Positions 15,828 to 57,776 of a stretch of DNA of 64,000 bases are shown piece after piece (positions within the stretch are counted from its first letter, which is position 1; each line of letters starts with the position of its first letter). The translations under genes and the position numbers were made by a program. The notes under the pieces are model-generated. The model did not search any database. It saw only the letters and a list, made by a program, of their open reading frames with translations, and was not told where the DNA came from. This DNA comes from Moniliella sp. 'wahieum' (taxonomy: Eukaryota). The stretch is from positions 372,001 to 436,000 of the forward strand of contig RSEE01000021.1 in NCBI GenBank assembly GCA_003971905.1. The letters are read 5' to 3'.

Positions 15828-17548
15828 TTACTTGGCCAGGAAGCCCGCCACGTGCTCCTGGACGACCGCCTTGATCTGCGCGTCGAGCTCCTTGGTCATC
15901 GTGCCCTTGGCAATCTCGGCCAGCAGTTCCGGCTTGGTGGTAAGGAACTCACGGAAGTTCTCCTCCCACGCCACAATCTGGTCGACGGGCACCGTGTCGA
16001 GGAGACCGTTGACCAGCGTAAATGATCGGCACCTGGATCTCCACACCGAGAGGGTGGAACAGGCCCTGCTTCAGCAGCTCCGTCAAGCGCGCACCACGCT
16101 CCAGCGTGTAGCGCGTGCCAGCGTCCAAGTCCGAGCCGAACTGGGCAAACGCAGCCAACTCACGGTACTGGGCCAAGTACAGCTTAAGCGAACCGGCAAC
16201 CGCCTTGTACACCTTGGTCTGAGCCGCCGAACCGACACGCGACACGGACAGACCGACGTTGACGGCGGGACGGACACCCTTGTAGAACAGCTCGGCCTCA
16301 AGGAAGATCTGGCCGTCGGTGATGGAAATGACGTTGGTCGGAATGAAAGCCGACACATCACCACCCTGGGTTTCAATGACGGGAAGCGCAGTAAGCGAAC
16401 CGCCGCCAAGCGAGTCGTTCATCTTGGCCGCACGCTCGAGGAGCGAGTGAAGTGTAGAAGACGTCACCGGGGTAAGCCTCACGACCGGGGGGACGACGCA
16501 GCAGCAGCGACATCTGACGGTAAGCCACAGCCTGCTTCGACAGGTCATCGTACACAATCAGCGCATTGCCGTTGTCACGGAACCACTCGCCAATAGCGCA
16601 GCCCGAGAAGGGAGCCAGGTACTGAAGCGGGGCAGCCTCCGAGGCGGTAGCGGCGACGACAATCGAGTACTTCATCGCGTCACGCTGCTCAAGCACCTTG
16701 ACGAATTGAGCAACCGTCGAACGCTTCTGGCCCACAGCAACGTAGACACAGTACAGCTTCTTCTTCTCCTCGTCCCCATCGTTCCACCGCTTCTGGTTGA
16801 GGATGGTGTCGAGCGCAACCGACGTCTTGCCAGTCTGACGGTCACCAATGATCAGCTCACGCTGGCCACGGCCAATGGGCACCATGGCGTCGATGGGCTT
16901 AATACCAGTGGCCATGGGCTCGTTGACCGAGCGACGGGGCAGAATACCAGGGGCCTTGAGCGAAATACGGCGACGGGTCGTGGCGTTGATAGGGCCCTTG
17001 CCGTCAATAGGGGTACCCAGAGCGTCCACCACACGGCCCAGCAGCTCGGGACCGACAGGCACGTCCACAATCTGGCCGGTACGCTTGACCGAGTCGCCCT
17101 CCTTGATGCTACGGTCGTTACCGAAGATGGTCACACCGACATTGTCGGCCTCCAAGTTGAGGCACATGCCACGCACGCCCGACTGGAACTCAACCATCTC
17201 CTCGGCCTGCACGTTCCGCAAGCCGTACACACGGGCAATACCGTCACCAATCGCTGGCGAGGGAGAGCACAATCAAGGTTAGTGGTCGAACATGGGGCCA
17301 TCCGAAGGGCACTCACTCAGCACACGGCCCGTCTCCTGCACATCAAAGCCGCTCTCGGCGCCAGCAATGCGCTGCTCGAGGATCGAGGACACCTCGGAGG
17401 CAGCGGCCTTGGCGGCGTAACCGCGGGCCATGGCAGGCGCCGCCGACAGAACGGCGGTACGGAGGGCGGCGGCCGGGGCGGCGCGCAGGGCAGCGCGGGG
17501 CGCAGCGCGGACAGCAAGACCAGCAAGACCGGCGTGGCGAGCAAGCAT
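15828..17548 (-). CDS. ATP1: Mitochondrial F1 ATP synthase alpha subunit
   Basis: Arg/Ala-rich presequence, [11 protein letters not shown], Walker [31 protein letters not shown]. Intron 17254..17316 (GTGAGT..CAG). Confidence 0.98.
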
Positions 17549-17727
17549 GGTTGTCAGAGCCAGGCTGGTGGGGGGGTGGTTCGTAGCCAAGAAAGCCGTG
17601 GCGGCCAATGACGAGAAGAACGGCGCACGGCCGGGCGGCGGCGCACTGCCCGTCTGCCAGCGATGAGGCCGGCCGCGCGCAGAACTGGCCCCCCGCGGCG
17701 GTGGAGGCGGCCCCGTGCGGGCAGTGC

Positions 17728-17762
17728 GGCAGGTGCTGGCAGGTGCTGGCAGGTGCTGGCAG
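17728..17762. repeat. 10-bp tandem repeat (GGCAGGTGCT) x3.5 upstream of ATP1
   Basis: Read directly: ggc aggtgctggc aggtgctggc aggtgctggc ag. Confidence 0.85.
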
Positions 17763-18174
17763 CCGCCGCCAGCCACTCGCAGCGGCGCAGCACCACACTG
17801 CCCCCCTGCTGCCCCGGCGTGCGCCTTACGTGAGCAGCCTGGCTTAGAAATGGGCCGCAGGCACAGCGACGACGCCAGGGGCAAGCAACCCTACTGTGTG
17901 TCAGCAGCTGCGCCCTCTGTTCGGTGCACTGTCCGGCGCTCGCCCCCAGTAGTGCAGCCTGGTCGTCGCACGTCGCGGGAGGAGACGCTTGCCGGGCTGC
18001 GATCGATCAACAATCTGATCCAGCGCGTCCTGCTGGCAGCCCGTCTGCTTCTGGCATTCTACAATGGCAGCAGACATGTGGGAGGCATCGTAACGCGTAA
18101 ACGCTTTTCTTCTTTTCTTTGTGGGGATGCTGGCTGCCGGGGGAAGCTGAAGCCAGACCAGACCAGATACATAC

Positions 18175-19598
18175 TCAGCCCATCAGATCGCCAACGCATT
18201 CATCTCGGCCCCCCCGATTCGCGCAAGCCCATCTCAAAGTACGAGTAGATCGTTGTCACAGCCATCAGGATGCCTGTGCCCGACCCAAACGCCAATCAGG
18301 TCGGCCGCGACCGAGAGCGCACGATGGTCGCCCCGCCCCAAGCAGCAGCAGTAGGGATGATTTTCTTCAGCTCCTTGTACATCGATCCATCCCGGTGGCC
18401 GGCCATGACCATGCCATTGTCCTTCAACTGCTTGGCCACGTCCGCGGGCCCGAGCCCGACACGTCAATCCACGCCTTGGAGATCAGAGACGCACATGACC
18501 AGGGTAAACGCGACATTGACCAGGGTGTGGATCGGATCCTTGGCCGCCTCAGAGAGAGACGTCGGGGGGGAGAGGTAGTAGGACAGGCCACCAACCGCAT
18601 GGAGTGGGCGAGTCGTCCAGCGGCTCCCATACGCCGAGCAGACGCACCAGCAGATGCGAGAGGGGAAGCGGGAGGCGAGCATTTGCGAAATGATAAACAC
18701 ATTGCTCGGAGAGTGCTGGTAAGCATAATGGGCATGTTGGATGTGTAGAAGAGCTTGACGGGATAGCGACCTGTTGGCCGCGGAAGCGGACCGACTTGAT
18801 CGGAATCTCAACCCGGAAACCTTGGAGGTAAATGACAGCAAGGAAGACAACGAGCGTAGCCAGTAGGTTCATCACATTGGGCAGGCGTTCACGGAAAAAG
18901 GCCTCTTTAGCGCTCGCGTCTTGTCGTTCCAAGTAAAGAGCAGATGCACCAAGGCCACCAAGGCACCTTCAAACTCGGGTCCGCGGCCTGTGTTCACTGT
19001 GGTGGGGCTGAATGCCTTCCAGACAATGCTTCGCAAATGTTGGTGGCAATGAACAGACTGATGCCGGAGCCCAGACCATAGCCTTTGACCAGGAGCTCGT
19101 CCAGCAGGATCACAATCAGTCCAGCCACAACAAGCTGGAGGATGAGTAGGAGCACACGCCCGCCCCAAGCTGCGAGGGGGGGCCATACAGACCCGACAGG
19201 ACATACACCGTAGCCTGACCAAGCGAGATGAGAATGGCGAAGAGTTTCTGGGCACCGCCAAACAGGGCGCGGTCCTCCTTGAGGCTAAAGTCGACTTCGA
19301 TCAGGTTGGCGCCGGCGAGCTGCATGATCATGCCCGAGGTAATAATCGGACTGATGCCCAGTTCCATCAAGGTTCCGCGGTTGGAAGCGAGAATGACACG
19401 CATCCAGTAGAGGGGGTCGGAGCTGTCGGAGGACATGATGCCGTAGAGCGGGATCTGGGACGAAACGAGAAAGATGCCCAGCACAATCGCGGTCCACAGC
19501 ACACGACTTTGGAAGGGGACCTTGCGTTCAGGGGCGGCCACCTCGGGTAGGACACCCATAAAAGGACGCACGAGCGCCAAGAAGCGAAACGAACTCAT
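18175..19598 (-). CDS. SEC61: Protein translocon subunit Sec61 alpha
   Basis: [69 protein letters not shown]. Multiple frameshifts. Confidence 0.97.
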
Positions 19599-20435
19599 CC
19601 TCTCCCCACGTTGAAATCAGAGGCCAGAGGTGGCGGAGATATGGGCAGGTGGTGGTGGTAGTCCAGTGACTAGACTTGTCTTCGCCATCCTCCTCGGGGC
19701 GGCCTTGGGCCCCCCGCGTACCACACCGCACCACGTGGCCGGTTCTGGCATTCCAGCTCCGGCCCAACCCTACTGCAGATGGCACGTGACATGTGACATG
19801 TGACCGCCACGGCACCGTTCTTGCTCTATGGACAGGCGATCAGTGACGATCACCGCTCAGGCCGGAAGAGCGGCAAAGGGGAACAAAAGCTCACGATGAA
19901 GAGGTCTGTTTTTTACCCTCGTGACCTGGTACCGGGGTTACCGGTGGCACCTCACTAACAGCTTTAAGGGCTTTCGCGGAAACGCACCTACAATATATGG
20001 GCCACACACAGTGCCTTGTGTACAGCGATGAGTTTGCAGTGTCTCTAGTAGTGAGAGTGAAGACGTGGGACGAGGAGAGATGATGCAGGGTTGTACGGAA
20101 GGCTATTATATATTCCACGAGAGGAGCCCACATATTATAGGGCGCAACAAGGACAGTGGCGGAGTCGGATAGAAACAGCGTCGAAAGTGATGTGTAATAG
20201 GATCAGGTAGCTACATGCGTGAAGGGGCTGACAAAACAACCAGCTTAACGAAACACGGGATTGGAGGGAGGCGGGATCTACAGGGGAAAAAATAAACACA
20301 GTTGCCAACCACAGAGCTAGTCACCTGCAACTCACAAATGGGCGGTAATCGCGTCGCAGGACCAAGTCTTGCCCCGCTCTTCATCCCACAGACCTTCGCT
20401 GAGAAGCAAGCCATGAACATGCTCATCCGGGTCGG

Positions 20436-21892
20436 TTAGGAGAAACCCGATGGGGAGAAGGCAGCGCGAAGGTGGCTGGTGAGTACTTCAGGGACCTCCA
20501 TGGCAGGAAAGTGGCCCCCCGTCAGCTTGCGCAGCCCAGACCAAATTGCTTCGGGCCTGGATCGAGCCCAGACTGGGTCCCCCCATTTCTCTGGGGAAGC
20601 GACTAAAACCAAGCGGTTGCTTCACATACAGTGCCGATCGTGCTAGCAGCGCAGCACTGTCGGGGTTGAGGCCGAATGGCAAAAAGCTGGTCCCGATGCA
20701 GCCGGTTTGCCAATAGAGCGTCATGGTAGACAAAAACTTGGTCAAACTCAACTGCGAGCGACGAGGATCCGGGACAGTATCGAGTGCGTCAAGGCTCGCT
20801 TGGTCCGTCAACAAGGGTTGGGTGACCGCGCTTGTGTACGACAAAAGGCCCGCAGGAGAGTCCAGCAGGGCATGCATCACCGCGCCGGTCGGTACTTTGG
20901 ATATAGTAATGCGCCCATTTTGCCTGCTTCTTCTAACCACAGAATAGGGGTCAGCAACAAGATTGGTTTTGGTCTGAGAAAGTCGTATGCTCGAGAAGGG
21001 AAACCCCCGTACCTTTTGCTTTACATTAGCCGTTGCCGTCCCTGCGTGCACCTGGAGGCGTGCTTGGCCGACGCGTTCTGGGCATGCTCAGTTCGCCTCC
21101 TGGAAACGAACTGAGATGCACAGCTTTGACCGCGGTGCCAGGCAAATTGGCAAGGACGCAGGCATGCAAGGATCCCCAGTCGGTGCCATGCACGGCATAG
21201 CCCAACCAACTGCTGCTGCTTCCGCCTTGCCCGTACCCAAGTCCATACATGAGTGCGTTGAGGATGCGTGCGTACCCAAACACGTCCCCTACGTAATGCT
21301 TGGTCGAAGGAGGAGGAGTGCTCCACACGAATCCAGGAAGAGAAGGAATGACCACATGGAACGCAGGGTCAGACGGGTCGCCTGCCCTTGCAACAGCAGT
21401 TAGTTATACGTGATCTTAGTAACGAAGCGGAAAGAGAGACGTACGTGGGTTGGTCAACGGTTCAATCAAATCCCAAAATTCAAAGAAGGACGAGGGCCAA
21501 CCATGGAGCAGAAGAAGGGGGATCGCATCCGGTCGGGAGAGCGCCGATGACAAAATGCAACTGTGAGCACCAGTCAATGTCGGCGATGTAGTGTGGGTGC
21601 TGTTGCAAGCGCGCCTGCAAGGCGTCAAAGTCGAACGAATTGGACCAGTAGGCCAACTGGGCCCGCAACTTTGTAGGATCAGGCGCTTGGCGCCGGTGTG
21701 TGGCATATCGCCCGGAAGATGGTTCCACGGTAACGTCCCTTCTGCCCGATCCAGACGAGCAATGACAGGATTGAGCCGCAAGCGCAAGTCATCGACCATG
21801 CGCGAGCTGACCCGAGGTTCAAACGGCTTCAGCTTCCGCACAGCGGGAACAGGCTCTGAGAGTGCGTTTTCAGTAGTCCACTGTTCAGCCAT
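20436..21892 (-). CDS. Microsomal-type epoxide hydrolase (EHN plus alpha/beta hydrolase)
   Basis: [27 protein letters not shown], nucleophile motif GTDWGS, C-terminal [11 protein letters not shown]. Probably contains introns near 21400-21450 and 20920-20990. Confidence 0.9.
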
Positions 21893-22898
21893 GGGTGTGA
21901 GGTGTGGGTGTAGGTGTGGTAGGGGCAATGGAAGGAGGGGTCGCAACCGTCGAGATTGGGTGGGCTGCTCTCCAATAATATGCCCAGCGCCGTTCCAGGG
22001 CGTTTGTCCTTTGCCCCACCCCTGCGCGCAATAAAGCACCCCAGTACAGCAGGCGGCTCGTTCCCTGTTGCTCGTTACGTAAATGCTTGGTACCTGGGTA
22101 GTCAGCGCCAGCCCAACAAAAAGGCCAGAGAGAGGCGTGTGGCCACCCACGCCCACCGCGGCCGCGCAAAATACCTTCCCACGAGGCTGGCCCGCGCCAT
22201 TCCGCGCACGTGGGAACCTTGCGGGAAGCGAGGGTCCCTTGGGCCCAAACTACTTCAAGCATCACCCTCAAGATTCATACTTCGCACGTGATACTGTGAT
22301 GCCATCTCTCACAGCTGTGGACCCATTCATGGCTCTGGCTTCCTCCTGGCCGTACTGAGTGTCGCCAGCGCATCCATAATTTCCTTCGCTTTACGGCTCT
22401 TGACGTTGAGAGGAAAACAAAGGCAACTGTATAACGGGATGGTACGAAAGAAGGAGTACATTTTGATAGGTGTTTTTGATGGTAGGAGTTCCTTTGAGAC
22501 CAAGGATAGAATCAAGGGTTCTAACAAGAAGCGGTCCCACCTGGCAATATTGCGGGACCAGCGCACCTGCATGGGAAGGTGGTGAGAGGCGGATGGGGTA
22601 ACCGAGGGGTAAATCGAAATGGAAGGGATAGGCAGCAGAAGGAATGTGAAAGCAGAGTTGAGAGTTGAGAACGTTGAGATGGTAGGTGTCGATCAAGTCG
22701 GAGCGAAACAGCGTACAGCCGCCATGGTCCGAGCACAATGAAGGGAAACAGTCGAGAAAAAAATCGACGATCGGGACGAATCAAGGAAGGGATTAGGGGC
22801 TCTAGACCCAAGGATCGTTTATATCCGAGCTCGGCTTCACCTCGAGCCCGTGGTGCAGTGTGGGGCATGTGTCCGCATCGGACTTCTCCAACTTGGAC

Positions 22899-24449
22899 TC
22901 ATAGGCAGTCATAACCAAGTCGGGGGCACGACGCAGAAGATTGGCACTGAGGTCCTGAGCTGCCAGCAGAGCCGCCGGCACTTCCTCGGCAGAGGGGGGG
23001 TGACGCCGGTACCGTAGCCAGTAGCCAAGGGCGACTCGGCTGAAGCCGCAGAGGAAGGAAGGGGGCTGTGTCTCCGTTTTCCCCAGCATACTCGTCTGCC
23101 AACGTACCACCTGATGAGGGTGCCGAGCCGGCAGTCGGATCGCGCGATGCGTGTGGGCTGAAGTGGAGAGAGTCAAAGTCCATGGTCATACCCGATTCTT
23201 GGGCAAGAGCAGACCACTCGGCATGCATCTCGCGCGCTTCGGCTTGGAATGCGGCAATAAAGCCAGAGGGCTCGGTGCTAAATTCAACCTCACCAAACGC
23301 GGAGAAGACGGGGGGTGGGTCGCTAAGCGCCGAACTTTCGTGGTATGCCGCAAGCCAGGGGTGCTGAAGTGCGTCTTGGGCCGAAATTCGGTCAAGCGGA
23401 TCCCACCGAAGACATTGGCGGATCAGGTCGACAGCAAGTGGGTCGCTATTAGGGAACTGGCCCTCGAGCGAAGGGGCGGGACGGGGGCCCCAGGACAGAA
23501 CTAGTCGCTGGGCCGACTTGGAAGAAGAGTGGGCGAGCAAGTCTGGGGACGGGCTGCCGATCAAGTTGTAGATCCGCGACAGTTGATCGACATAGTCCGT
23601 GCCGGGGAACAAGGGTTGCCCAAGAAGGAGCTCAGCGAGGATGCATCCAACCGCCCACATGTCCATCTCGGGGCCATAGCCTTCGCGGAACTGAAGCAGG
23701 ATCTCGGGTGAACGGTACCAGCGCGTGGCCACATGGCCTGACAACGGCTCGCCTGGATAGAAGAGGCGAGTGGGTTGGTTACTTGTGCGCACCCGCAGCT
23801 TGCCTGGGTGCCATCCGGGCGGAGGGACGGCGGAAACAGGGACCTTGTCGGGATGGCCCCGAAATTGAGAAGAAAGATGCTGTACGCTGGCGGCGTGCTG
23901 CAGCGTTGGACTCGCCTTGGGCGAAGGGGAGGAGGTGTCGGACCAAGCGCGGGCCAGGCCATAGTCGCAAATGCGCAGCGCGCAGTCAGCATTGACGAGC
24001 AGGTTGCTTGGCTTGAGATCGCGGTGAACAATGTGGGCCGCATGCATGTACCGTACCCCGCGCAACAATTGAACCGTAAAGTATTGCAGATGCGCATTGG
24101 TGAGAGATTGGCGCGAACGGATAATTTGTGACAGGTTAGCTTCCGACGGAGCCATAACCAAATAAATCTCCCCCCACTCGACAAACGTAGCGTCAAAGTC
24201 GAGTAGAACGGTAGAGTTGTCGCACATGCTCAGGTGGCGCAAGATGGCAACTTCACGCAGAGCATGGCGAGCAATGCCGCCATTGGTGAAGATACGGTTC
24301 ATCTTCTTGAGCGCAACCGTCACATCAAGGACCGAGTCGTGGGCAAGAGCGACACATCCGTAGGAGCCAACACCGAGTGCGCGCACAAAAGTATAGCGCT
24401 GGTGTACATGGAAAGGCACGCCAAGGCAGTCGAACGTGTGGTAACCCAT
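22899..24449 (-). CDS. Slt2/Mpk1-like MAP kinase, atypical (no TxY, long activation-loop insertion)
   Basis: Intact 516-aa ORF with GVGSYG, ALKK, HRDLKPSNLLVNADC, DYGLAR, VATRWYRSPE, LFPGTDYVDQL. The true C-terminus may shift frame and end at 22802. Confidence 0.88.
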   Translation of the reverse strand: MGYHTFDCLGVPFHVHQRYTFVRALGVGSYGCVALAHDSVLDVTVALKKMNRIFTNGGIARHALREVAILRHLSMCDNSTVLLDFDATFVEWGEIYLVMAPSEANLSQIIRSRQSLTNAHLQYFTVQLLRGVRYMHAAHIVHRDLKPSNLLVNADCALRICDYGLARAWSDTSSPSPKASPTLQHAASVQHLSSQFRGHPDKVPVSAVPPPGWHPGKLRVRTSNQPTRLFYPGEPLSGHVATRWYRSPEILLQFREGYGPEMDMWAVGCILAELLLGQPLFPGTDYVDQLSRIYNLIGSPSPDLLAHSSSKSAQRLVLSWGPRPAPSLEGQFPNSDPLAVDLIRQCLRWDPLDRISAQDALQHPWLAAYHESSALSDPPPVFSAFGEVEFSTEPSGFIAAFQAEAREMHAEWSALAQESGMTMDFDSLHFSPHASRDPTAGSAPSSGGTLADEYAGENGDTAPFLPLRLQPSRPWLLATVPASPPLCRGSAGGSAGSSGPQCQSSASCPRLGYDCL

Positions 24450-25089
24450 GGCTGTCAGAAGCTCAGGGGAAAATTGGGGGTCGACTGGAGAAGGGTCTGC
24501 AGCGGGCGCTTGTTTTTCGTTGGCACATGGGCTTGAGGTGGTCGGGAGAAAGGGGCAGGATCCGACAAGCCACGCGCATGGCGGGCTGGACGGACAGGGT
24601 TGGCGGGGGGGGCAGGAGACAAGGCGGTAGCGGCAGTAGCAGCGGTGGGAGCCGGAGCTGGACGTTCAGAGGGAAGGCGAGGAAGAGGAGGTGCATCGAC
24701 GGCACAAAAGGGGGCGGCGGTGCGACGGGCACAGGTGGGGGGGTGTGAACGAGGCGGCGAGTACGACGCACACGGCGCTCCCCCGAGGCAAGGGCGGAGT
24801 AGCGGCGGTGAGGAGCGGCGGTGAGAGTGGCATCGCGAGGGATGAGGTGGTGGTGGTGGTGGTCGGGGAAGGGGGCGCGCAAGGTAGAAAAGGAAGAGGT
24901 GAGGATGGGGGATGGAATGTGGTGGAGAGGGGTCGCGGGTGGCCGGCACGTGCGTTTTTTGTGCAGACAGGCAGTGCCGAGTTCGGTTTGGGGGAGCGCA
25001 GTGGTCAACCAGGGCGTGCCAGGACGCAGTGTAGCGGCAGGATGGGTGTGTTGGCTTCCTGGAGGACAACGCATTATGCGCCTATGTAG

Positions 25090-27540
25090 GTACTGAGGGT
25101 ACTCATGCGCCCACGATGCGTGATGCCGCCTGTCCATTGAACAGCATCGAAGGTATTGAACGTTGAACAAATACTAGCGTGAAGCGCGTGAAGCGTGAAG
25201 CTTGAAGCTTGAAGCTTGAAGCTTGAAGCGTGCCATGTGACGTGTGAAGCGTGAACGTGGAAATGGAACGCCGTCGGCGCAAGTGCCAAGCAAGTCACTC
25301 CCTTAATCCCTCGCCCTTTTTCAAGCTTCTAGCTTCCAGCGTCAGGTAGTCAGCAAGTCAGCGTACAGCCCCCCAGCGCGCGTTTAGCGGCTCAGCCTGA
25401 GCGCCTGTGCGCTCTGCTCCGCCGCACGTCACTAGCTTCAGCGCAGTCAATCACTACGCCGCCCCAGCGCGCAAGAGCGAGCAACGACCGAGCACGAGGT
25501 GTTGCAGTGGTGTTGCAGGCGTTGCTGCCATCATGCATCATGCATCAAGCTTCAAGCCTTGCCGGCGGGATTTAATACTGGACGAGGGCAGAGCCGGCTT
25601 CCCTGCTGTTCTAATGCCCTGCGGCCCTGCTGCCCCTCTGCCAGTAGCTCCATCCAATTTTCATCTTCATGTTGACACTTCAAGCTTCAAGACCTTCAAG
25701 CCTCCTCCCCCGTCGCGCGCCGCCCCCACCCGACCTGACATGCTGACAGGAACACTTTGAGTTCAGTTTTCAGTTTTCAATCCTTTCATGCCTCGCTCTC
25801 AGCGCCTACCGGCCCACTGCTCGCTTATGCCAACACCACCCAGGATGTATGATGCATGATGCATGATGCACCTGATGTTCTGGAAGTGCGTCGCACTAGT
25901 TCATCGATCATCGATCATCATGCATCAGCAGGATGGCCCTGGCGCTGCACTTTGTCCTTGTTACGTGCTACATGTTATCACCGACCATCGACTATCGACC
26001 GGCGACCATCGATCGTCGGCTATCATATCATCGACAGGCGCAACCACACAGCAACCCTTTGTATCGAAAAGCTAAAGCTAAAGCTTAAAGCAAAAGCAAA
26101 GCTTAAAAAACGGAGGGACTGTCAGCATGTCATTAATCATCCCGTCGATCATCGCTTCCAACCAGACCAAGCCTCGGCGCTGCTGCCTCCTGCTGCCTCT
26201 CGCGTCTCGCAAATCTTTCACATGCCATCTGCATGTCACACATGTCACACCTCCATCCTCCTCCGCCTTGCTGCACCCCCGATAATGTGCTCGCTTGCTA
26301 AGCTTGCTACTTGTTAGTTACTATGGAGACCTCCAACTCCACCGGGTACATGGGATGCCGAGTACACCAAGTACTGAGCACTTGAATGTTCACTTTCAGC
26401 GGACTCAGTACTCAATGGTTTGCCTGTCACATGTCAGGCACACGTCCCCGTCCCCGTCCCATGTCGTGTGCCACATACGTGGCATGCGTGTCGTTGCGTG
26501 TCCTGGTGTCCCCCCTCCCAGCACTTGTGCGTCCCGGTCACCTGACCCGGGCCCGCCAGTGCCCCCTCCTGCATCTGCGCCCCCATTCAGTTTCCATTCA
26601 AACGTCACGCGTCACGCATCACGTGTCACGTGCCACACCGTCACATACCCCTGGCACAATGGTGTTGTTACGTAACTTTGAGCATTGGCTGCCCGCCACC
26701 CTCTCGGGCCCTGGCCTGAGCTAGTCTAGAGCGCGCTGCGCTTCGGGTATGCACATCGTGCACAGACACCGCGCACTCCGGATGCGGCTCAGCACCAGCT
26801 CGGCGGCTCAGTGCCCTCTGGTCCAGACGCCAAACGCAGCTGCGCGGCCCGCGAAGGACCCAACAAAAAATGGGGGGACTAGCTGGGCTTGCTGGTAGGA
26901 GGTCGATGTCGATGAGGCTGCGGCCTGCTGTGGCCGCGTCATCATGTCATGCATCCAAGCCGCCATGATGCATGATGCATGAGCGCACCCGCGTCCCCAG
27001 CCACCATCGGACCGCACAGCTTCCACCACGGAAATGTTCAAATGGGTGGGCGGTAGCCGGTAGGCGCTAATAAGCTTCCTCGGGCGTCGGTGAGCATGTA
27101 GTCATTTTTAAAGTTGTCGGTTATGCCACGCTCACCTGCACCACATCTCTTATGCCCGCCACGCTCCGCCGTATCCGCTCGCGCTACAGGCGGATGGAAA
27201 CGAACGGCGGCAGCCGCAGGGTGCTGCTGGCATTGCCGACATGTGACTAGCTAGCTGGTCCTGACCTGCTCATGCCGCCCTTGTTGAACGTTGAATATTG
27301 AATGCCGTTGGGTTGAACGTTTGCTACTGTCCACAGGCTCAGTCTGCAGGCGGAGGCGCTGAATAACGTCTCAATTCCCTCAACGTACCCTCAACCTCAA
27401 CGCGAACATTGAACGTATTCAACGTTCAAAATACTCAGTTGAACTCCTCCAACCCAGGGGTGTCACATATATTCACCTGTCAGCTATCGCCCATGCAATC
27501 AAATTCACCTCAGTCTCCTGAAGCTTGAAGGTCTCAGGAT
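25090..27540. repeat. Dense cluster of 7-bp-period NNTNANN micro-arrays
   Basis: (CTTGAAG)4 25201..25228, (CATCATG)2 then CTTCAAG 25529..25556, (CATGATG) 25848..25868, (GATCATC) 25899..25919, ACTCAGT 26403..26416, GTTGAAC/ATTGAAT 27283..27303. Confidence 0.9.
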
Positions 27541-27553
27541 GAAAGAATGGAAA

Positions 27554-29448
27554 CTACCTGCTTGCCCCTGCATTCCCAAGCTTCGCTTCCCACCGGCACT
27601 CGCATATTCGGGCCCAATCATCGTCTTCCTTCATACGAATCGTACGGCTCAGGGCACACGCCCTCGCTCGCCCTCCTTTTTTCGTCATTGTGCCACGTCC
27701 CAGGGGCCTTCTGCTCTGGCCCATTATACTGCGCATGCCACCCTTGAGCGGCCTGCGCCCATGAAGAATCCAACCCAGCAGGCGGCGGTTGCTTGCTTCG
27801 CCTCCAATGACATCGAACCAGATGGGACTGCCAATCCTAGAGGCACAGGGAGCCAAGGGAAGCAGGAGGATCGGCTCCTCTCCCCCGTGGGTCGGTGGGA
27901 ATCGGCGTATAACCGACATTTCCGTAGACGACGGCTCAGGAGCACGGGCGATGGCCCCCAAAGAGGCAGTGGTACTTGGGCCGAAGTAGCCGGGACAACA
28001 TCGCACTCAACCGTGAACGAGCTTGGATCACTTTGGCGTTGAGCGTTTGCAAATCGGCAACCTGCTCTTGGTACTTGCGTATCGCTTGTTCACCCGTGCG
28101 AAAGAAGTGACCTTGACCACTTGTTCGTACACCTCTCGAAGCTCTTCGTTTGCCCCCGCGTCCGTCGCGCTCCTTGAGGCCAGACCGACATTTTGCCCTG
28201 CCTCAAACGCATCGCTGCGTTCACACAGCAGCTTCACCAGCTGGTCCACCTTGTCGGCCGCCGCAAACACTTCGGCCTCCTCGGCGGATCACGGACTTGC
28301 TCTTCAGCACTAGTCCCGCAACCACTTCCTAAGCCGCACACAAAACCAACCCAGAAACGGTCAGCAGAGAATGCATTTTTGGGGCGCACCAAAGCGGGGG
28401 AAACAGACGAACCAATGGTTTACCGGTACAATCCCATCTCCACCTCGCACTTCTGCGCGCCACCAATGCTCATACGACGTGTTGATCACCCGGATGAGAT
28501 CACCGGCACGGAGACCCAGCTCGCCTTGCTCGCTAGGAGTAAAATCGTACAACGCCCGGGCTCGGGTCACGCTCGGGACGACCACTGGCTGGGCGAGCAC
28601 CAGTGGCGGAGGCGGTGCAAGTGGGGGGGTCGGGAACGAGGGAGGCACTGTGGAAGCGACCGTGGCCGCTCCGGTTCCATTCGTTTGGCTGGGAGTGGGA
28701 GCTGTGAATCCGAAGTGGAAGGGATGGGAGAGAGTGTGCGGAGGGGGAACAGAAGAAGTAGGAGTGCTCGCAGGCATCGACTGCATCCACTGGGCGGTCC
28801 GCCTTGGTCAAGCAGCGACAGAGCAAGGGCGCGTTGTAGCTCCTCCTGCTCCTGGTCCCGCGCCGACTTGGGGGCGGTTCCTTTTTTTGGGCGGCAAAAG
28901 AATAGCCTAGTGTACAGGCGGACGGTCCATGTTAAGGATTCCATAGGTACGAGAATGAACACAAAGAGGGAGGGGACACAGGTGGTGAAAGAGCGCTTAC
29001 TGACCTTCATCCCGCTTTTGATAGGTCTCTTGCATAATAGCCCCTGCTCCATTGCCTCCAGCAGTCTTGGCGGATTGGCTCATATCGCTGGCCCAAGACT
29101 GGATGAGGCTCAGCAGGCGCTGGCGCACCACGGGGTGTACGTTAGCCCGGTCCTGCACCATGCGGAGGAGTACGGTGCAGAAGGCACGACTGCCAATTCG
29201 GGGCAGATAATGGGGCCCGGGACGTTTTTGCTCAAGGCCTCGGCAAGCGAGAGACAGAAAAGCTGGACGTTCGCACTGCGGTGCTGCAATCGATGAGCCA
29301 GGGCGTCGACGGCTTGGCGGGCCCCAGACTCACCCTGTCCGCGCACACCGTCGCAGATGTGCAAGTTCAAGTCCCACTTTTCAGACACGAGATGCTCGTC
29401 GGTTGCCTTGGCGATAAGTTCGTCATAGGGGTTGTTCGGACGGAACAT
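27554..29448 (-). CDS. HSE1: ESCRT-0 subunit Hse1/STAM (VHS, UIM, SH3, GAT)
   Basis: VHS: NPYDELIAKATDEHLVSEKWDLNLHICD; UIM: EEELQRALALSL-like; SH3: ARALYDFTPSEQGELGLRAGDLI..WWRAEVRG; then FAAADKVDQLVKLL. Introns and frameshifts present; 3' end approximate. Confidence 0.88.
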
Positions 29449-29886
29449 GAGGGTGGTGATGGTGTGGGAGGGGGTCGGTTGGGTGGTACATCCTTATACA
29501 CCCTTACACTCTATCCAGTCTGGCGTTGGCGCCTGCACCAGGAGCCTGCTATTGGCAGCAATAAGCGCTAAGCTGCCTCACAAAGTGAGGGGCAACGCGG
29601 CGCAGGCGCAGCAGGCGACGGACCGCGGTGGCGCCACCCGCCCCGGTGTTGCACCGACCGGGGCCATGCAGGTGGCTGAGCTCAGCAGGCATGCTGCCGC
29701 ATCATGCATCGTCATCACCGATCGCCCGAGGCGATGGCGGGGCGGCGAGGCATGGCAGGTGGATGAGGTCAGCAGGCTGTGGCGCAGAGCACGGCAGCGC
29801 AAAGCAAAGCCCAGCAGGCAGCAGGCTGGCGCGCGTTTGCGGCGACGCACCACGCAGCCACCGCCATCCCCAGCGGCGTCCACGCC

Positions 29887-32648
29887 ATGTCCGTCAGCGC
29901 AGCCCGCCCGCCGCGTGCCCACCCACACGCCCGGCGCCGCCCCGCCTATGCCACGCCCCCTCCGCCCCACCCGCCAGCTCGCCCACCGCCGCGCCCCACT
30001 CGGTCTCCATCAACAATCTCGGCACCAACAACTCGCCCATCACCGTTGTCACCTACCGCACCACCAGCATCAAAGCCCTCATTGATCCCACCCTCTCTGT
30101 CGCCGATGTTGTGCGCCACCTGTGTGTAAATACAATGCTGGGTTCAGGAACCCCACCAGCGTTTCGCCCTCCGCGACGAGCAAGGCGACGAGCTTGTCAC
30201 CGATGCCAATATGCGCCGTAAGATCGAAGCGGGCCGTCGGTTCAAGCTCTGCTCTTCTCCTGCCATTGAGGCAGCCGAGATGGTAGACAAGCTCTCTACC
30301 TTCCGCACCGAGGACCGTGTCCTGAATTGCCACCTACACGCTCCAACATTTGATCCGCGAAGCACCCTTTGCCGCCGAGTTTGTCGCCCGCGGCGGCCTG
30401 CGCGAGCTTCTTGCCCTCGTCATGTCCTTCCCGCTCCCCCCCAACCAGTAGTCCTCCCCGAGTACCGCGAACCCCTGCAATTGGAGTCAATACGCTGGCG
30501 TACGCACTCATTTCGCTTCAAAACCTGATGGAATGCTTTGACGATGGCTGGGAAGAGATTGATGGTGCCTTTGTTCAAAAGGTGGTCCAGATCCTGACCC
30601 GCCTCGATCGGATCAACGTCTGTCGGCCTTTGACAGCCATCCTTAAGAAATTGGTCGTGAGCGGACCAGATAACTCGAACGACGATGGGGAGAAGGAACC
30701 CTCCAGCGGCGATCGCACCCCCACTGGAAGCCGCCCGGGCTCAGGCCGGTTTGGCAACGAGAACACGGGATCGAGTGTGTTACCTGGGCGATCGATTTAT
30801 GGGTTGGACGCTCACGCAACCAGCATCAACAAGTTTGGCTTTGACATAATCTACCTTCATATTGTTGAAGAGCCTGACTTTTTGCGTACACTCGTTCATC
30901 GCCTTGGCAGTGCAGACACGACCCTGTGTCTATACAGGTATCCCTTCTGGCTTTGGCATTTTGCAACGAGTGCAAGTTCTAACCAAACACCTTTTCCATC
31001 TAGCTTCTCATTATTGAACACACTCGTTCGCCATGCCACATCCTCCTACTTTGAGCAATTGACGACCGAGTTGGACGCTTTGCACTTTGTCAATGCAGCA
31101 GTGCGATTGATGAATGCCAATCCCTCGGACGAGTTGACCATCTGCATTCTCGAGGCCCAGGCAATCAACGGCGGATCCTCAACTGGCGTATGCATACCCC
31201 CGTTGCCCCACAAAACAACGACACGTTAGCGCGCTTTCCTTCATCTGGCTCCAAGCACGCATCTCAGAGATTGCTGCCGACGAGGGCGGGCCCCGCGATC
31301 TGGCTGGGTCGGGACGACATGGACCCGCTGCCTCGACGCGGTTTGCCACTGCTGCAGCATTGAACAGTCGGTACAAGTGGCGACGACTTGGGTTTGGAAG
31401 CGAGGCGGTAGCCAAAGAGTTTGGCAAGTTGGGTTGGCTGGCGCTGCGCAACTGCGAAGCCTTTGTCCAGCCCGACCCGGAAGGATACAGCAAGATCATC
31501 ATTGATCAGCTCAACCAGCCGGTCGAGCGGCGCTGTCCCTTTGGCCGCGCCAGCATCGAGGTGACCGACATTCTTGCCGAGTTTTGGAACGTTTCCAATC
31601 CAGCTGGGGTGCCATATGCGTTCCCGGGTGCGACGCTATGGCCGTGTTCCAGCCGTACCTGCTGCACTTTGAGCGGGTCCATGGGTTGGTTCTTCGCTTC
31701 TTTTTGCGCATGTGGGCGGAGGCCAACGCGTCGTCCCAAGACTTTGCTCGCATCGCCGCCTTGACCCGCAGCCAAGTGCGGGCCACCTTTTCTGATGAGG
31801 GTCACAAAACCTGGACCGAGGTGGAGCGGTCATTCCTCGAGACGGAATACGCACGCGCGGGCGGTGCATCTCAAAACGTTGGAACAAACCGACGAGATGG
31901 CATCCAAGCCCGGCATTTGCTCTCTCCGCGACCAGCTGTACCGGGAAAGCTATGAGTTTGTACGGCAACAGCGAATCCGCTGTCTTCTGGAAGGTGCTTG
32001 GTTCCTCAACAAATCCCCCTCCGCTTCCCAGCCGGCGGGAGCAGCGATGGCCATGTGGCGCTTTTACCGCCTGTCGCCCGACAAGCGCTTCCTCCACTAC
32101 TGCGAGTCACAAGAGCGGACCCCGGTGCCTGCCGGGTTGGACACGTTGCCTGAACGGATTGATCTAACGCAAGTGACCGACATTAGCGTCTCCAACATGG
32201 CGCAACAGATCCGCTCTCATTTTGACCCCAGTCCCAGCGCAGCGACTGGTACCGGCGCGGGTGGCGCCGCACCGCAAAAGCAATCGGCCCCCGAGGCAGC
32301 GGCCAACCTAACCTTTGGCCTGATCAAGACGCCGGATACGTTGGTCGCCGAGCTGCGTGCTCTGAATCAGTCTCAGTTTTCCGAATGGGTTGATGGCCTG
32401 TCGATGATGCGCGGTGAGGGCGGTGTCATCCGGACCCGCAATACGGCCGACTACATTCAAGCTCTCACTGAGGTGGCCGTCCAAGTGCAATTGCTTGACA
32501 TTACGGGCGACAAGGTACGTTGTCTCCCTCCCCCTCCTCTTTGTTTTCACACACTCAGACTAACTGCTGGTACCAGATTGACCTTCCCTCTTTCGTTTCC
32601 GTCCCGCCTCCCCCGAATCCTGGGACTTTTACTATTCGGGAGGTCTGA
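29887..32648 (+). CDS. ELMO/CED-12 family protein with C-terminal PH domain
   Basis: ALRDEQGDELVTDANMRRKI, KWRRLGFGSE, RRCPFGRASIEVTDIL, FVRQQRIRCLLEGAWF, WRFYRLSPDKRFLHY, EWVDGLSM and a Pro-rich tail. Introns near 30938..31003 and 32514..32576. Confidence 0.9.
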
Positions 32649-34231
32649 TGCCTTGTCAACTCTTTGGCCTTCACCTCTTTTTTGGACCCCCCTACCACCC
32701 TCCTCCCGCCACATACGCATACCGCTCTCTTTGACCGAGCCCATATCACTTCGCATCTTGGGATATCGGGGGAATTGTTTGGCCTCACCTCCACCCCGCT
32801 GCGATCCGGCTATGGTTGATACAGCGTGGAACCTGTCCCGGATCCTCTCCCATCCTGTTCCGCTCTTTCTGTCTGTTGTGGCGTCCCCCCTTGCCCAACC
32901 CGGCGCCGTTCCCTTTCTGTTGTTTTGGACCTTGGAATTTGCCCTGGACGCCAGGTCCCTTCTCCCGCCCCTCCCCTCCTTTCCCTTGCTCTTTCCCGGC
33001 GAAACTTGTGAGCTTGGCGCTTTCTCCATCCCCCTTTTGGTATTGCTTCGTAGATGAGCGTGACGAGCGCCAAACGAGGGGCAATATAGCTGAAGTGTCC
33101 AATCCATCACGACACACCAGTAACAATTGTGGCGTACTTGGTCATCCCTTCTGTCTCTGTCTCTTTCTCCTTGTGGTGGGCATGGGATAGGACGTGCTTC
33201 AAACCAAAGGCAAAAGGTATTTTGTTGCCTTGGCGTTGATGTACGCTGGCGAGCCAACCCCAAGGGCCGAGAGGGAGATATAAACGAGTACAAACCAGTT
33301 GGACACCCTACATATAACTCTCAGGATGCTTAAGCTTCAAGTTCCCCCGAGGCTCGCCAGCACGGCAGTGGAGCTCAGCGCACCACAGTTGGATGTGTGA
33401 CGCGAGTGCTTGTTCGGATGATCGATGAACTGTCGGACAAAAAGGTGTCTACGCAGCGGCCAGCACCTCACTGGCTGGTTTCGCGGCCTGGGCGCAAGTC
33501 TGGCAGCTGACTGACGCGCCTCCTTCGATACGTCTCCTACCTCCTATGTCATGGCTTTCCTCCTCTCTTCTCACTAACCCTCCTCCTCTCTCTCCGTTAC
33601 TCCCTCCTTCGCTCACTAGGAAGCAATCCCTATCGATCGATCATTTGGCCTCTTGCTCTTGATTGCTGTTTTGCTCGGCACCGGGATCAGGTCATATCAG
33701 AGATCGTTGGTGCGCTTCTTTTCCCCCATCCCCTCCTTTCTGTATCCCTTTCGCTCCCTACCCTGCCCCTCCCCCACCCCACAGCAACCAACATGCCTAT
33801 CTGGGAGCCCACTGAGGATCACGTTCCCTCAGTGGCCACAATCGTGGCACCGAATTGTCAGTATCCTTTGCAACGATAACACCCCATGCCCGTTTACCTT
33901 ACCTTTCTAGTCGGATGCCCGTGCCGCAACAGCCTCTCGCCTGTTGCGCCTCGCCCCCGGTTCTTCGGCTCATCTATTGTGCGTTGTTTCGCTTTTAGTC
34001 CCTGTCTGTAACCCATGGTTCGTGGGTTTCCCCGGGTGCATTAGCGTCTTCCCCTCAAGGAAGAGTCCTTCTCCTACCCCCTCGGCAGTACCTACTGCTG
34101 CCAAAACTTGAGCAGGCATGTCACTTCCGTCACTGGTAGCAGCCCCCAAAACAAAAGGAGCTCCGTCATAGGAAGACGTTAGTGGCGAGGGCATATGAAG
34201 CCAGGAGAAGAAGCCAAACATGCTAACGTAT

Positions 34232-34325
34232 GGCATCGTGGTGTAGTTTTTATCACGTATCCTTAACAAGTGCGCTACGCGCTTGATAACGGATAAGGTC
34301 CCCGGTTTCGAGCCCGGCGAAGTCA
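34232..34325 (+). tRNA. tRNA-Val(AAC) with a 21-nt intron (34269..34289)
   Basis: Acceptor stem GGCATCG/CGAAGTC, D stem GTG/CAC, anticodon stem TATCC/GGATA with loop TT-AAC-A then intron then C, T arm with TTCGA, followed by a T6 Pol III terminator. Confidence 0.85.
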
Positions 34326-35904
34326 TTTTTTATCCAGGTTTTGGTAAGAGTCGGGCGATACGAGTGAGACCAAGGACCAAGGGAAGCAATTGATGCCCTG
34401 TGGCAAGGGAAAGAAGGATAACAGGATCGGCGAAGAGCAGTGAGAAGATTTACATGAGTAGTTAAGAGGGGCGTGAGACAGGTTCTTCCTGTATCATGCT
34501 ACTAGTATCTAAACACAACCAAAACTGTGGTCTTTGACACCCTTGGCACGCGACGGCAGATGTCCCCCCCTCGTCTCATATGGAGAGTATCATTAGTGTG
34601 TCGCATCCTGCAAAGCATTTCTTCGGGGATTTGCCAAACATATACCAGACCGATGGTGGAGACATGTATATTATGATGTGTGAAGTGACATCCACAACAA
34701 GGAGGAGGAGCTGTTATCGTCGCTATCATCACGTCTCTTTTGGTGCAAGCGAGGGGGACGAAGAGGGGAAGAGGGCAGAAGCGACGAGAGAATTCTTCAG
34801 ATGGAGCGTTTTTGGATCTGACTCTCCATAAGTAGATGTGTCCTGCAAACGACCATTTAATCAGACCTCCGACAGTACTTCAGGCGAGCATCCGTTCGTG
34901 ATCACCACCCGCCATGATGAACTCATGGGCTATTATATGTGACACAAATGTTTTGGACGTGCCTATTACTGTGAGCACGAAGAGGCCACAGCCAAAGCTT
35001 CAGCCGACGCCAACCGCTACATGAACGCTGTCCCGGAGCCCCCATCTTCGTCTTCTTTTGCCGACACATCTGGGCCGACGCCCGTCACGGAGCCTGCCAC
35101 ACCTATACCCTGTCGTCGAGCCTACCTCGAAGGCTGTTGTCACTAAAGGTGTGTATGTTACTAATATACAAGTTGTTGACGGAGAATGATCCGTCAGTCG
35201 AACAGATACAAGACAACGCTGCTGTAATCGCCCACCCGTTGATGTAAAGTTCCCTGCTGATTGGCAGATGCTCGTCTGCCCTCTATTCCGATAGTTGACA
35301 GACGAAGGATTCTCCTCAGGAAGATCTATGTGCCTTTACAATTGTCATCTGGTTGTCCCGTTTGTGGACAAAAAATACCATTTGATTCTTCATGCCACTC
35401 GTCATTGATCAACTTTCTACTGGCACGCCTATATAGACCGTCTGGATGCGCACTTGTGAGCTCTGTCGCATATACTTAGTAAAAGTAGGTAGTACAAGAG
35501 CCTCCTGTGGTAAGCAACTATTCCACTATGGAGGCTGCTGAAAGTGGTTTCCCACTGTATGATATACCAAAGGGTTTGCTTCATCCATTCATTGATCATC
35601 CATCCATTGATAAAAAGATGATTCGGTAGACATCGAAACACGATACCAAAACGATGACGGGAAAGGGGAAAAAGGAGGCCAGCAGTAAATGGAAACGGTT
35701 CGAGAAACATAGCATCCGACGGGTCGGATGCGTCCCCGGCACGGTTGGCCAGAGGGATCAAATGATTTGGTCGTTGAATGCTCCAACAATGTCGAAGACG
35801 AGTTGGTCGATAAATCCCGAGTCAGGACGAGGGAGCGATATGCTCGACCACGTTAAATCTGTCCTTCTCATCACCCGTCAGGAGAGGGGTCCAAGGCCGA
35901 AGGA

Positions 35905-45800: not shown

Positions 45801-45960
45801 ATCCTCACTTCCGTTGCAGTCGAACTATATTGTGTGTCTGCTGTAGTTGCGATGCTTCTTCATCTTATGAAGAGTTCCATTATGTTATCACGTTGGCGTC
45901 TCGGCGAAGACACGTCTCATGATAACACCGGCCAACGTTGTACGGAAGAGGCGAGAGGTA

Positions 45961-56686: not shown

Positions 56687-57776
<1,090 letters not shown>

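Follow-up and report, generated by a model that had tools for sequence, protein, structure and literature searches.

The closest described systems are transposons that leave hairpins on the flanking DNA when they excise, the coding joints of V(D)J recombination, and transposons with a 7-bp target-site duplication. Transib, which belongs to the first group, duplicates 5 bp of its target. Galileo, in the last group, is a member of the P superfamily, and we know of no description of flank-hairpin chemistry for P elements or for that superfamily. Target duplications are 8 bp in hAT elements and 8-10 bp in MULEs, and the flank hairpin of the MULE Muta1 measured 43 + 43 nt (PMC5499845). The preferred position of hairpin opening by yeast Pso2 is +2 (PMC3299998), which is also the main opening site of Artemis, where 4-nt overhangs with P nucleotides dominate (PMC2175297). 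Excision of Ac/Ds in Candida albicans left 28 different footprints among 128 revertants, and the palindrome of a hAT footprint is centred on the complement of the base adjoining the element (PMC5873905). A 7-bp target duplication is made by Galileo, with the consensus GTAGTAC, a 3+1+3 palindrome (PMC2775673), and by Dada elements (PMC8869645).

In the window, the whole stretch of 64,000 bases analysed here, four heptamers (CATCATG CATCATG CATCAAG CTTCAAG, 25529..25556) stand in a single 7-bp register, and the non-palindromic unit CATCAAG has two left-palindromised neighbours and one right-palindromised neighbour. The letters and the shared register given in the original prediction were confirmed by reading the sequence and are far beyond chance. 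Its description of the left neighbours as the left half of CATCAAG palindromised, and of the right neighbour as the right half palindromised, was also borne out. The TNA pairs of this array at 25531, 25538 and 25545 fell into the pair classes XB/AY, B/A and X/Y, respectively. The exact 28-mer was rebuilt from CATCAAG by three events of a hairpin (P-nucleotide) rule, in agreement with the end-hairpin model proposed earlier, but a hairpin end alone is insufficient for the product. Since abTNA is directly copied on both sides, the product also calls for a staggered duplication of 7 bp, for example the target-site duplication of a transposon.

The array consists of a single, very regular kind of mutation stacked three times, and the mechanism behind it may be inferred from the pattern only. 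Three events at one and the same TNA site, as had been supposed, are not required, every event making a new TNA site. The exclusion of slippage holds for the palindromised neighbours, which unchanged copying cannot produce, but not for the second CATCATG, which could come from slippage or from a hit within a palindromic unit. The "seed" CATCAAG could itself be a mutated copy of CATCATG and not the ancestor.

The same signature was found across the window (1..64000) as 52 perfect one-sided events, about 50 with one later substitution, and 23 exact arrays of palindromic TNA heptamers. The window belongs to a basidiomycete, probably one of the Ustilaginomycotina, and the nearest protein relative showed 71% identity. 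The elementary event converts abTNAxy into abTNA·b'a'·abTNAxy, or the reverse complement of this, and is mostly seen as isolated pairs. Perfect elementary pairs, consisting of a seed and one palindromised neighbour, numbered 52 in the window, whereas 20 dinucleotide shuffles averaged 0.2. The exact 7-bp register formed by a 5-nt direct and a 2-nt inverted copy gave 141 matches (9.4 in shuffles). TNA sites were spaced 7 bp apart in 208 pairs (119.5±10.9 in shuffles), and the 4-nt spacer was a perfect palindrome in 92 of these, against 7.17±2.63 in 30 shuffles. Palindromic spacers of 2, 6, 8 and 10 nt were counted and all lay at expectation, so that only 4 nt was in excess, and TNA spacings of 6 and 8 bp showed no excess in the window. 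Among the 208 pairs, 31 + 27 were palindromised on one side, 24 were fully palindromic tandems, six were plain tandems confined to four sites, and two were double-palindromised, confined to two sites. One-sided palindromisation is therefore the dominant event in the window. The sequence rule can be read directly from these pairs, and our literature search, which took in a paper on Microstromatales telomeres, found no prior description of such a palindromised TNA-7 signature.

Exact tandem repeats of at least two copies told the same story of period, with 49 arrays of period 7, five of period 8 and 11 of period 9. Among the 49, 23 were xyTNAy'x' palindromes, while about 2% is predicted from base composition; palindromic units made up 267 of the 2470 TNA heptamers in the 64-kb window. 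The products are uniform. The inverted filler was 2 nt long in 96 cases, 0 nt in 10 and 1 nt in eight, and never 3-5 nt. Read under the model set out below, the opening offset was 2/3 in 39 rows, ambiguous (1-3) in 13, 0 at four sites and 4/5 in one row. The centre base was identical between both units in most informative pairs, so the direct copy is no shorter than 4 nt and the inverted copy no longer than 3 nt. At least two copies of the palindromised neighbour were present in eight of the 52 events. Slippage or local re-use must be added for these, because the arrays exceed the length predicted by independent hits.

Specificity for TNA was equally clear. Among the 16 XNY words, TNA had the highest 7-periodicity (1.80-fold), the runner-up reaching 1.26-fold, and T and A occupied positions 3 and 5 in 96 of the 141 matches to the rule pattern. 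No base preference was seen around the window events at a, b, x, y or farther out, and all 16 possible flank pairs were in use. A preference for C or G at the centre was ruled out, these bases being found in 43/52 events and at 1867/2470 TNA sites of the background, and no other centre base was preferred above background. Symmetry of the target about N would suit an enzyme that acts as a dimer and makes its cuts 7 bp apart. Compared with the palindromic expectation, the outer dinucleotide differed at two bases in 28/52 events and at one base in 24/52, random seeds giving 60:40. Single mismatches to a perfect dimer (n = 32) fell 24 times at outer and eight times at inner positions. The seeds are real and are not decayed perfect dimers. 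We also considered half-sites, in which T alone would suffice and the T side would always be palindromised. Single deviations were similar at every constrained position (0-11 each), and the T-only cases are therefore decayed full-site events.

Only two of 2202 non-palindromic TNA heptamers had palindromised neighbours on both sides, namely the array at 25529-25556 and GTTGAAC GTTGAAT ATTGAAT (27283..27303), which contains two rule events from GTTGAAT. Independence of left and right events would give 0.31 such composites for the whole window, or 0.64 when calculated by 2-kb bins. Any excess of two-sided composites over independent stacking in a hot region is therefore mild at most, and the expectation that composites would stand out against chance was not supported, the class being not clearly above chance stacking. 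Two stretches were rich in events, 24-28 kb with 14 and 44-52 kb with 18, and the density was about 1-2 per kb of non-coding DNA.

The signature is real and old, with a spread of ages and exclusion from coding DNA. Only one of the 52 events lay inside an ORF supported by Pfam, though such ORFs cover 15,264 of the 64,000 bases (24%). Derivatives with one substitution numbered 62, compared with about 9.6 in shuffles, and their substitutions were spread across all constrained positions.

Like roughly 100 sites of the same kind in the window, the array appears to be a scar of a single type of recurrent mutation involving hairpin-ended DNA breaks, most simply the excision of a transposon. The best explanation is that an unseen cut-and-paste element, with nnTNAnn as its 7-bp target, left these scars as footprints of its excision, and we judge this explanation about equally likely to be right or wrong. 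Such an element would insert and duplicate a 7-bp stretch centred on TNA (abTNAxy) as its target-site duplication. On excision, both flanks would be sealed as blunt, covalently closed hairpins exactly at the element boundary. A host nuclease of the Pso2/Artemis type would then open the hairpins 2 nt 3' of the tip, giving the 4-nt self-complementary 3' overhangs xyy'x' and b'a'ab. Ligation of the untrimmed ends would follow, and repair or replication would settle the 4 mismatched nucleotides. One strand would yield abTNAxy·y'x'TNAxy and the other abTNAb'a'·abTNAxy, each exceeding the empty site by exactly 7 bp. Palindromic units would simply double, so that an array would gain one unit per cycle, while non-palindromic units would acquire left and right palindromic neighbours that differ from each other, as in 25529-25556. 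The hairpin intermediate, its opening at +2, the 7-bp target duplication and the mobile element itself are thus what we infer from the rule, and the untrimmed joining of two non-complementary 4-nt overhangs is an assumption of the model.

The window scars share several properties with the footprints of flank-hairpin transposons (hAT Ac/Ds, MULE Muta1 and Transib). There the empty donor site retains the target duplication (PMC3299998, PMC5873905, PMC5499845), and short inverted copies of the flank stand at the junction, where the hairpin is opened by a Pso2/Artemis-type nuclease, as is presumed for the window. Correspondingly, a direct duplication of the putative target is kept at the junctions in the window, and the junction bases are palindromic in the manner of P nucleotides. 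However, the register of 7 bp differs from those of hAT (8 bp), MULE (8-10 bp) and Transib (5 bp) as described above. The palindrome in the window is even (xy·y'x'), unlike the centred palindrome that accompanies the 8-bp duplication in hAT footprints. The heterogeneous junctions expected of end joining were not seen, the window scars being far more uniform than experimental footprints, with essentially two reverse-complementary products instead of dozens. The window target is nnTNAnn, and no element was seen in the 64 kb. A scan for target duplications of 5, 7, 8 and 9 bp with inverted termini gave one weak match, with a 5-bp duplication. No dispersed repeat families, tRNAs or Rfam families were found in the window, and Pfam detected no transposase domain in the 150 longest of its 177 stop-to-stop ORFs of at least 130 aa.

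V(D)J coding joints are alike in that blunt hairpins are mainly opened at +2, as would be the case in the window, which yields 4-nt self-complementary 3' overhangs and allows two inverted bases to be retained (PMC2175297). In contrast to the window, these joints are mostly trimmed and diversified and most of them lose their P nucleotides, as far as this source describes them (PMC2175297). They also arise in the somatic cells of jawed vertebrates and involve no target-site duplication. Galileo of Drosophila and Dada share the 7-bp duplication, and the Galileo consensus is symmetric like the putative window target (PMC2775673, PMC8869645). However, the centre of the Galileo consensus is A.T and not T.A, both are animal elements, and genome-wide footprint arrays are not among the features given in the part of the Galileo account used here (PMC2775673). 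No superfamily is known to combine a 7-bp target duplication with blunt flank hairpins, and this weighs against excision, as do the uniformity of the scars and the lack of an element in the window.

Other geometries were tried and rejected. The hAT geometry (8-bp duplication, 1-nt offset) also gives a net gain of 7 bp, but its palindrome is odd and its filler does not match the observed pairs. An asymmetric target duplication of 5 or 4 bp with P bases from one flank only fits formally, but its target would be asymmetric whereas the T.A preference is symmetric about N. A 3-bp TNA duplication of the PIF/Harbinger or CACTA type predicts TNATNA, and a spacing of 3 was not enriched (116 vs 119.5). 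Paper derivations for a single hairpin at a TN^A break, a telomere-resolvase-like cut, staggers of the Top2 or Spo11 type and flap or template-switch models gave +3, +4, inversion or plain tandem.

The same products might also be made without an element, by a host or domesticated nuclease that cuts TNA sites genome-wide with a 7-bp stagger and hairpins, and whose repair leaves the +7 palindromised product. We consider this unlikely. The lack of an element, dispersed repeats and transposase in the window agrees with it, as does the dense occurrence of events at about 1-2 per kb of non-coding DNA, and the extreme uniformity of the products suggests a coupled, deterministic reaction over free end joining. 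However, the 7-bp direct register together with a zero-loop 4-bp palindrome could be derived only via a gap-filled target duplication followed by hairpin ends. What a nuclease might do otherwise does not lead there on paper: a staggered break with fill-in gives a plain tandem, found at four sites only, a single TN^A hairpin adds 3 bp, and a telomere-resolvase-like cut produces an inversion. In addition, no candidate enzyme was seen in the window.

Replication error, in which template switching or slippage at short hairpin-prone sequences would both make and expand the palindromic heptamers, is quite improbable as the source of the signature. Palindromic arrays can fold, the arrays are longer than independent hits predict (8/52 neighbours in at least two copies), and growth of existing arrays by slippage is indistinguishable from repeated events. 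Micro- and minisatellites produced by slippage are also short tandem arrays of variable copy number in non-coding DNA. Yet slippage leaves units unchanged, with identical direct copies and no dependence on the centre, and 58 of the 208 pairs have a palindromised, non-identical neighbour against six plain tandems. In the window the neighbours differ from the seed by rule, only period 7 and TNA centres are in excess, and most arrays are two-unit pairs. Snap-back copying would require a loop of zero or one base. There is no seed homology for a return 7 nt back either, the flanks being unbiased and a half-matching outer dinucleotide occurring in 24/52 events compared with about 21 by chance.

Multiplication of selected protein-binding sites in promoters, for instance those of dimeric transcription factors, would accord with units that are dyad-symmetric, intergenic and located beside genes, but is very unlikely. 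A transcription-factor array should show a consensus beyond two bases. Here the flank composition is flat, with all 16 flank pairs used and a, b, x and y unbiased, and a specific factor would need more than the constant T.A. The neighbour that a non-palindromic seed gains is built from half of that seed, and selection for a single motif would yield no such neighbours. One-substitution derivatives are evenly spread over positions, as neutral decay predicts. The heptamer of AP-1/Gcn4-type factors has an ANT centre, and ANT was the least frequent centre with palindromic spacers (four cases). An artefact of sequencing, library preparation or assembly, for which nothing specific speaks apart from the occasional miscalling of short tandem structures, is extremely improbable because avoidance of coding DNA (1/52 events in 24% of the window) and graded decay are unexpected of artefacts, and the strict tie to TNA also argues against it.

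If excision through hairpin ends is indeed responsible, the window offers a large natural sample of hairpin-end repair outcomes, with about 100 events per 64 kb and, by extrapolation, thousands genome-wide. It would provide an in vivo readout of hairpin opening and of the joining of incompatible overhangs in a fungus, hitherto available only from engineered Ac/Ds or V(D)J substrates. Tandem repeats would be born from unique sequence without slippage and then grow in promoters, and mutation models for genomes of this kind should not count 7-bp palindromic arrays as ordinary microsatellites. The signature would also point to an element or nuclease that combines blunt flank hairpins with a TNA-centred target of 7 bp, an unreported pairing. 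A more speculative proposal, which we hold to be improbable, is that the fungus carries an undescribed enzyme system, which could be a domesticated RAG/Transib/MULE-like transposase or else a new superfamily whose 7-bp target is nnTNAnn. It would form blunt flank hairpins and reseal them so precisely that each cycle adds exactly one 7-bp unit. Such a system would amount to a dedicated source of palindromic microsatellites in promoters, acting in a sequence-specific way, and the genome would hold a fossil record of thousands of +2 hairpin openings in vivo.

Several other arrays lie close to the four-unit array. At 25187..25232, a plain tandem pair of the non-palindromic TNA heptamer CGTGAAG is followed by its right-palindromised unit expanded fourfold (CTTGAAG) and then by CGTG. 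The array CTTCAAG CTTCAAG AC CTTCAAG (25678..25701) has a unit identical to the right end of the 25529-25556 array, 122 bp downstream of it. Seeds with two copies of a palindromised unit were found at 25848..25870, where TATGATG is followed by the right-palindromised CATGATG CATGATG, and at 26964..26984, where CATGAGC is preceded by two copies of the left-palindromised CATGATG. At 25899..25929, GTTCATC GATCATC GATCATC overlaps CATCATG CATCAGC, so that two TNA sites 3 bp apart have both been expanded in separate registers. The array at 26603..26632 (CGTCACG CGTCACG CATCACG TGTCACG TG) consists of a palindromic TNA heptamer and is partly decayed. The region of 25.2-27.4 kb is flanked by a kinase ORF and by ORFs with an SH3 domain.

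A total of 49 exact tandem repeats of period 7 with at least two copies were detected in the window, as many as of period 6 (49), together with five of period 8 and 11 of period 9. A 3+1+3 palindromic rotation existed for 24 of the 49 period-7 arrays and the form xyTNAy'x' (primes denote complementary bases) for 23, against 11% and 2% predicted by base composition. The 7-bp TNA signal is independent of the exact arrays. TNA-TNA pairs with a spacing of 7 numbered 208, compared with 119.5±10.9 in 50 dinucleotide-preserving shuffles, while the other spacings within 3-15 gave counts of 76-144. Among the 16 XNY words, TNA had the strongest 7-periodicity (1.80-fold; runner-up 1.26-fold). The 4-nt spacer between 7-spaced TNAs was a perfect palindrome in 92 of the 208 pairs versus 7.17±2.63 in 30 shuffles. 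No such excess was seen for palindromic spacers of 2 nt (22 vs 27.7), 6 nt (2 vs 2.0), 8 nt (1 vs 0.77) or 10 nt (0 vs 0.03). The spacing of 11 was depleted (76 vs 117.2±9.8), and the spacing of 9 was slightly raised (144 vs 116.6±12.2), of which the palindromic 6-nt spacers were not the cause.

All 208 pairs were written as ab-TNA-pqrs-TNA-xy and classed. Right-palindromised pairs (pq=xy, rs=y'x') accounted for 31, left-palindromised pairs (pq=b'a', rs=ab) for 27 and fully palindromic tandem pairs for 24. Six were plain tandem pairs with a non-palindromic unit, two of them phase artefacts of an AATCATT array, and two were double-palindromised. Only one half was explained in 52 pairs and neither half in 66, the latter being about the background level. 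The left- and right-palindromised classes are mutual reverse complements and therefore represent a single event, by which the seed heptamer abTNAxy becomes abTNA·b'a'·abTNAxy. Its perfect one-sided form occurred 52 times on the two strands scanned, against 0.2 in 20 shuffles. Isolated pairs predominated, with one copy of the palindromised neighbour in 44 events, two in seven and four in one. Most informative pairs had the same centre base in both units; since this base is retained, the direct copy must span 4 nt or more and the inverted copy no more than 3 nt. The inverted filler was 2 nt in 96 cases, 0 nt in 10, 1 nt in eight and never 3-5 nt. No base preference was found at a, b, x, y or the 10 flanking bases on each side, and a C or G centre (43 of 52 events) was not above its share of TNA sites overall (1867 of 2470). 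At 49742-49762 (GGTCACC GGTTACC GGTCACC) and 49801-49814 (GGTCACC GGTTAGA) neighbouring units differ in centre base (C/T), which needs a substitution on top of the simple rule.

This rule consists of a 7-bp duplicated target, blunt hairpins on both flanks opened p nt 3' of the tip, and untrimmed joining. The top strand is then TSD + rc(last p bases) + TSD[p:] and the bottom strand TSD[:7-p] + rc(first p bases) + TSD (TSD, target-site duplication; rc, reverse complement), and both equal the empty site plus exactly 7 bp. Fitted to the classified pairs with non-palindromic TNA seeds, p was 2 or 3 in 39, values that are indistinguishable because T pairs with A; 13 were ambiguous between 1 and 3, p was 0 at four sites and 4/5 in one pair, and none required p=1. 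Because spacings of 6 and 8 were not enriched, p must be equal on the two flanks, most simply as a constant p=2.

A loop-free, perfectly palindromic junction, xy·y'x', is the signature left by a covalently closed hairpin opened off-centre (P nucleotides). For Artemis:DNA-PKcs, the available text of one study gives +2 as the principal position of opening, with a predominance of 4-nt 3' overhangs composed of inverted repeats (PMC2175297). The 4-bp palindromes of the window would be the expected remains of two 4-nt 3' overhangs. Since abTNA stands in direct orientation on both sides of the junction, which a hairpin-ended break alone cannot give, a target-site duplication is required, probably from a transposon. 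Several alternatives were worked out on paper and rejected: a TN^A break with a hairpin, staggered cuts followed by fill-in, a reaction like that of a telomere resolvase, and flap or template-switch schemes. Their products were an inversion, a plain tandem or a gain of 3 or 4 bp.

The 28-mer at 25529-25556 reads CATCATG CATCATG CATCAAG CTTCAAG, and its original description as four units in a single 7-bp register was exact. CATCATG corresponds to CAT-C, the left half of CATCAAG, completed with the reverse complement of that half, and CTTCAAG corresponds likewise to the right half, C-AAG. With p=2, CATCAAG gives the exact 28-mer in three events. From the palindromic starts CATCATG or CTTCAAG it is unreachable unless a substitution is added; a CATCATG array whose last unit underwent a T to A substitution, followed by one further event, may also be its history. 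Among 2202 non-palindromic TNA heptamers in the window, 24 had a left-palindromised neighbour, 28 a right-palindromised one and two both. The second of these two-sided composites, GTTGAAC GTTGAAT ATTGAAT at 27283-27303, follows from GTTGAAT in two events. Two composites compare with 0.31 expected per window under independence, or 0.64 with 2-kb bins. The original prediction that composites would exceed chance juxtaposition thus finds, in this window, mild enrichment at most; elementary events within a hot region suffice and no special process is required.

The one-sided events are not perfect arrays after decay. In 28 of the 52, both bases of the seed's outer dinucleotide departed from what a palindrome requires, and in the other 24 a single base did; random seeds predict 60:40, and decayed perfect dimers a preponderance of single differences. 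Of 32 single mismatches relative to a perfect palindromic dimer, 24 fell on the four outer positions and eight on the four inner ones. Single-deviation forms of the rule numbered 62 versus about 9.6 in shuffles; they were distributed across the constrained positions (0-11 per class), corresponding to about 8% divergence per position. Asymmetric events at T-only half-sites were dropped as a candidate given this spread. Pfam-supported ORFs occupy 15,264 of the 64,000 bases, yet contain only one of the 52 events, in the 5' extension of an ORF, far upstream of its kinase domain. These are real events, both old and still occurring. Selected binding sites or an artefact have little probability as their origin. 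Clusters were seen at 24-28 kb (14 events) and 44-52 kb (18 events).

Excision footprints of a cut-and-paste transposon are an even bet as the origin. Insertion of such an element would leave a gap-filled 7-bp duplication, excision through flank hairpins would give the observed pair directly, and local re-insertion, with a new TNA target per scar, could account for clustering and array growth. Transib and RAG have a 5-bp target duplication and blunt hairpins. To our knowledge, a 7-bp TNA-centred duplication with flank hairpins is combined in no described superfamily, which counts against a transposon. As far as the accessible text of each report goes, hAT elements do not fit, having an 8-bp duplication and an odd palindrome whose centre is the complement of the element-adjacent base (PMC5873905); the MULE Muta1 has an 8-10 bp duplication and a 43 + 43 nt flank hairpin (PMC5499845); and Galileo (P superfamily) has a 7-bp duplication with the 3+1+3 palindromic consensus GTAGTAC (PMC2775673). 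Ac/Ds excision in C. albicans gave 28 kinds of footprint among 128 revertants in the part of the report available (PMC5873905), and the far greater uniformity of the window scars also argues against a transposon. So does a scan of the window for target duplications with inverted termini, which returned one weak match only. The repeat search of the window found no dispersed family, and the 150 longest of its 177 ORFs held no transposase domain; absence from the window is weak evidence against a low-copy element. Array length counts against a transposon as well: two or more copies in eight of the 52 palindromised neighbours exceed the prediction for independent hits, so that slippage or strong re-use of sites is also needed.

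A nuclease with the same end chemistry and no element would accommodate the lack of an element in the window and the palindromic junctions; the direct abTNA copies make it a rather doubtful alternative to transposon excision. Replication-based origins are more improbable still, as the flap and template-switch products differ from the observed pair. In a full-text literature search, largely confined to journals free of subscription, no account of 7-bp TNA-centred palindromised duplications or of comparable genome-wide footprint arrays was found. What appears to be new is the geometry, target and regularity; hairpin/P-nucleotide footprints were already known.

The two unit families of the 28-mer recur in separate arrays across about 2.5 kb (25100-27600): CATNATG at 25529, 25536, 25855, 25862, 25916, 26940, 26964 and 26971, and CTTNAAG at 25201-25222, 25550, 25678-25694, 26084 and 27524. 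All 16 families are present window-wide, and the half-site composition of this stretch shows only a mild skew, itself partly circular. The chain GATGACA TGTGACA CATGATG CATGACG (15442-15469), which supplies one double-palindromised pair of the two, is most readily explained by neighbouring TNA sites 7 bp apart, two in number, with one event each. At 25899-25929, GTTCATC GATCATC GATCATC is followed by CATCATG CATCAGC in two registers 3 bp apart, consistent with an ancestor GATCATCAGC with two overlapping TNA sites. About six copies of GGAATGG (4547-4597; also scored as period 21) form a non-palindromic heptamer array not of TNA type within the long minus-strand PI-PLC ORF. Internally repeated ORFs lacking Pfam matches (39827-42668) probably encode a repetitive protein; they contain repeat pairs of 71, 57 and 47 nt (40003-40977) and 181 nt (41943-42558) and 15/30-bp repeats (42303-42417). 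G-rich tandem repeats (including a GGGGGTGGGAGA unit, about five copies) and a 23/44-bp C-rich repeat, at 8090-8293 and 38633-38729, bear no relation to the TNA signature.

The window DNA is eukaryotic and fungal, with Pfam domains of PI-PLC, several protein kinases, ELMO, CSL/LAG1, bZIP, mitochondrial ATP synthase alpha, Sec61, SH3, CRAL-TRIO and epoxide hydrolase. For the PI-PLC ORF, the top-ranking named homologues came from Tilletiaria, Parajaminaea, Jaminaea, Ceraceosorus and Meira (40-47% identity); for ATP synthase alpha they came from Parajaminaea (90%), Jaminaea pallidilutea (89%) and Moesziomyces (89%); no close named relative was among the homologues listed for the two proteins. These homologues point to a basidiomycete, probably of the Ustilaginomycotina. 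No tRNA genes or Rfam families were found in the 64-kb window. The 28-mer lies in about 2.2 kb without Pfam-supported ORFs, bounded by a kinase ORF (22902-24665, minus strand) and by ORFs near 27.4-28.8 kb. Immediately upstream of it, at 25498-25528, GGTGTTGCAGT GGTGTTGCAGG CGTTGCTGC form a direct repeat of another type, with an 11-bp unit.
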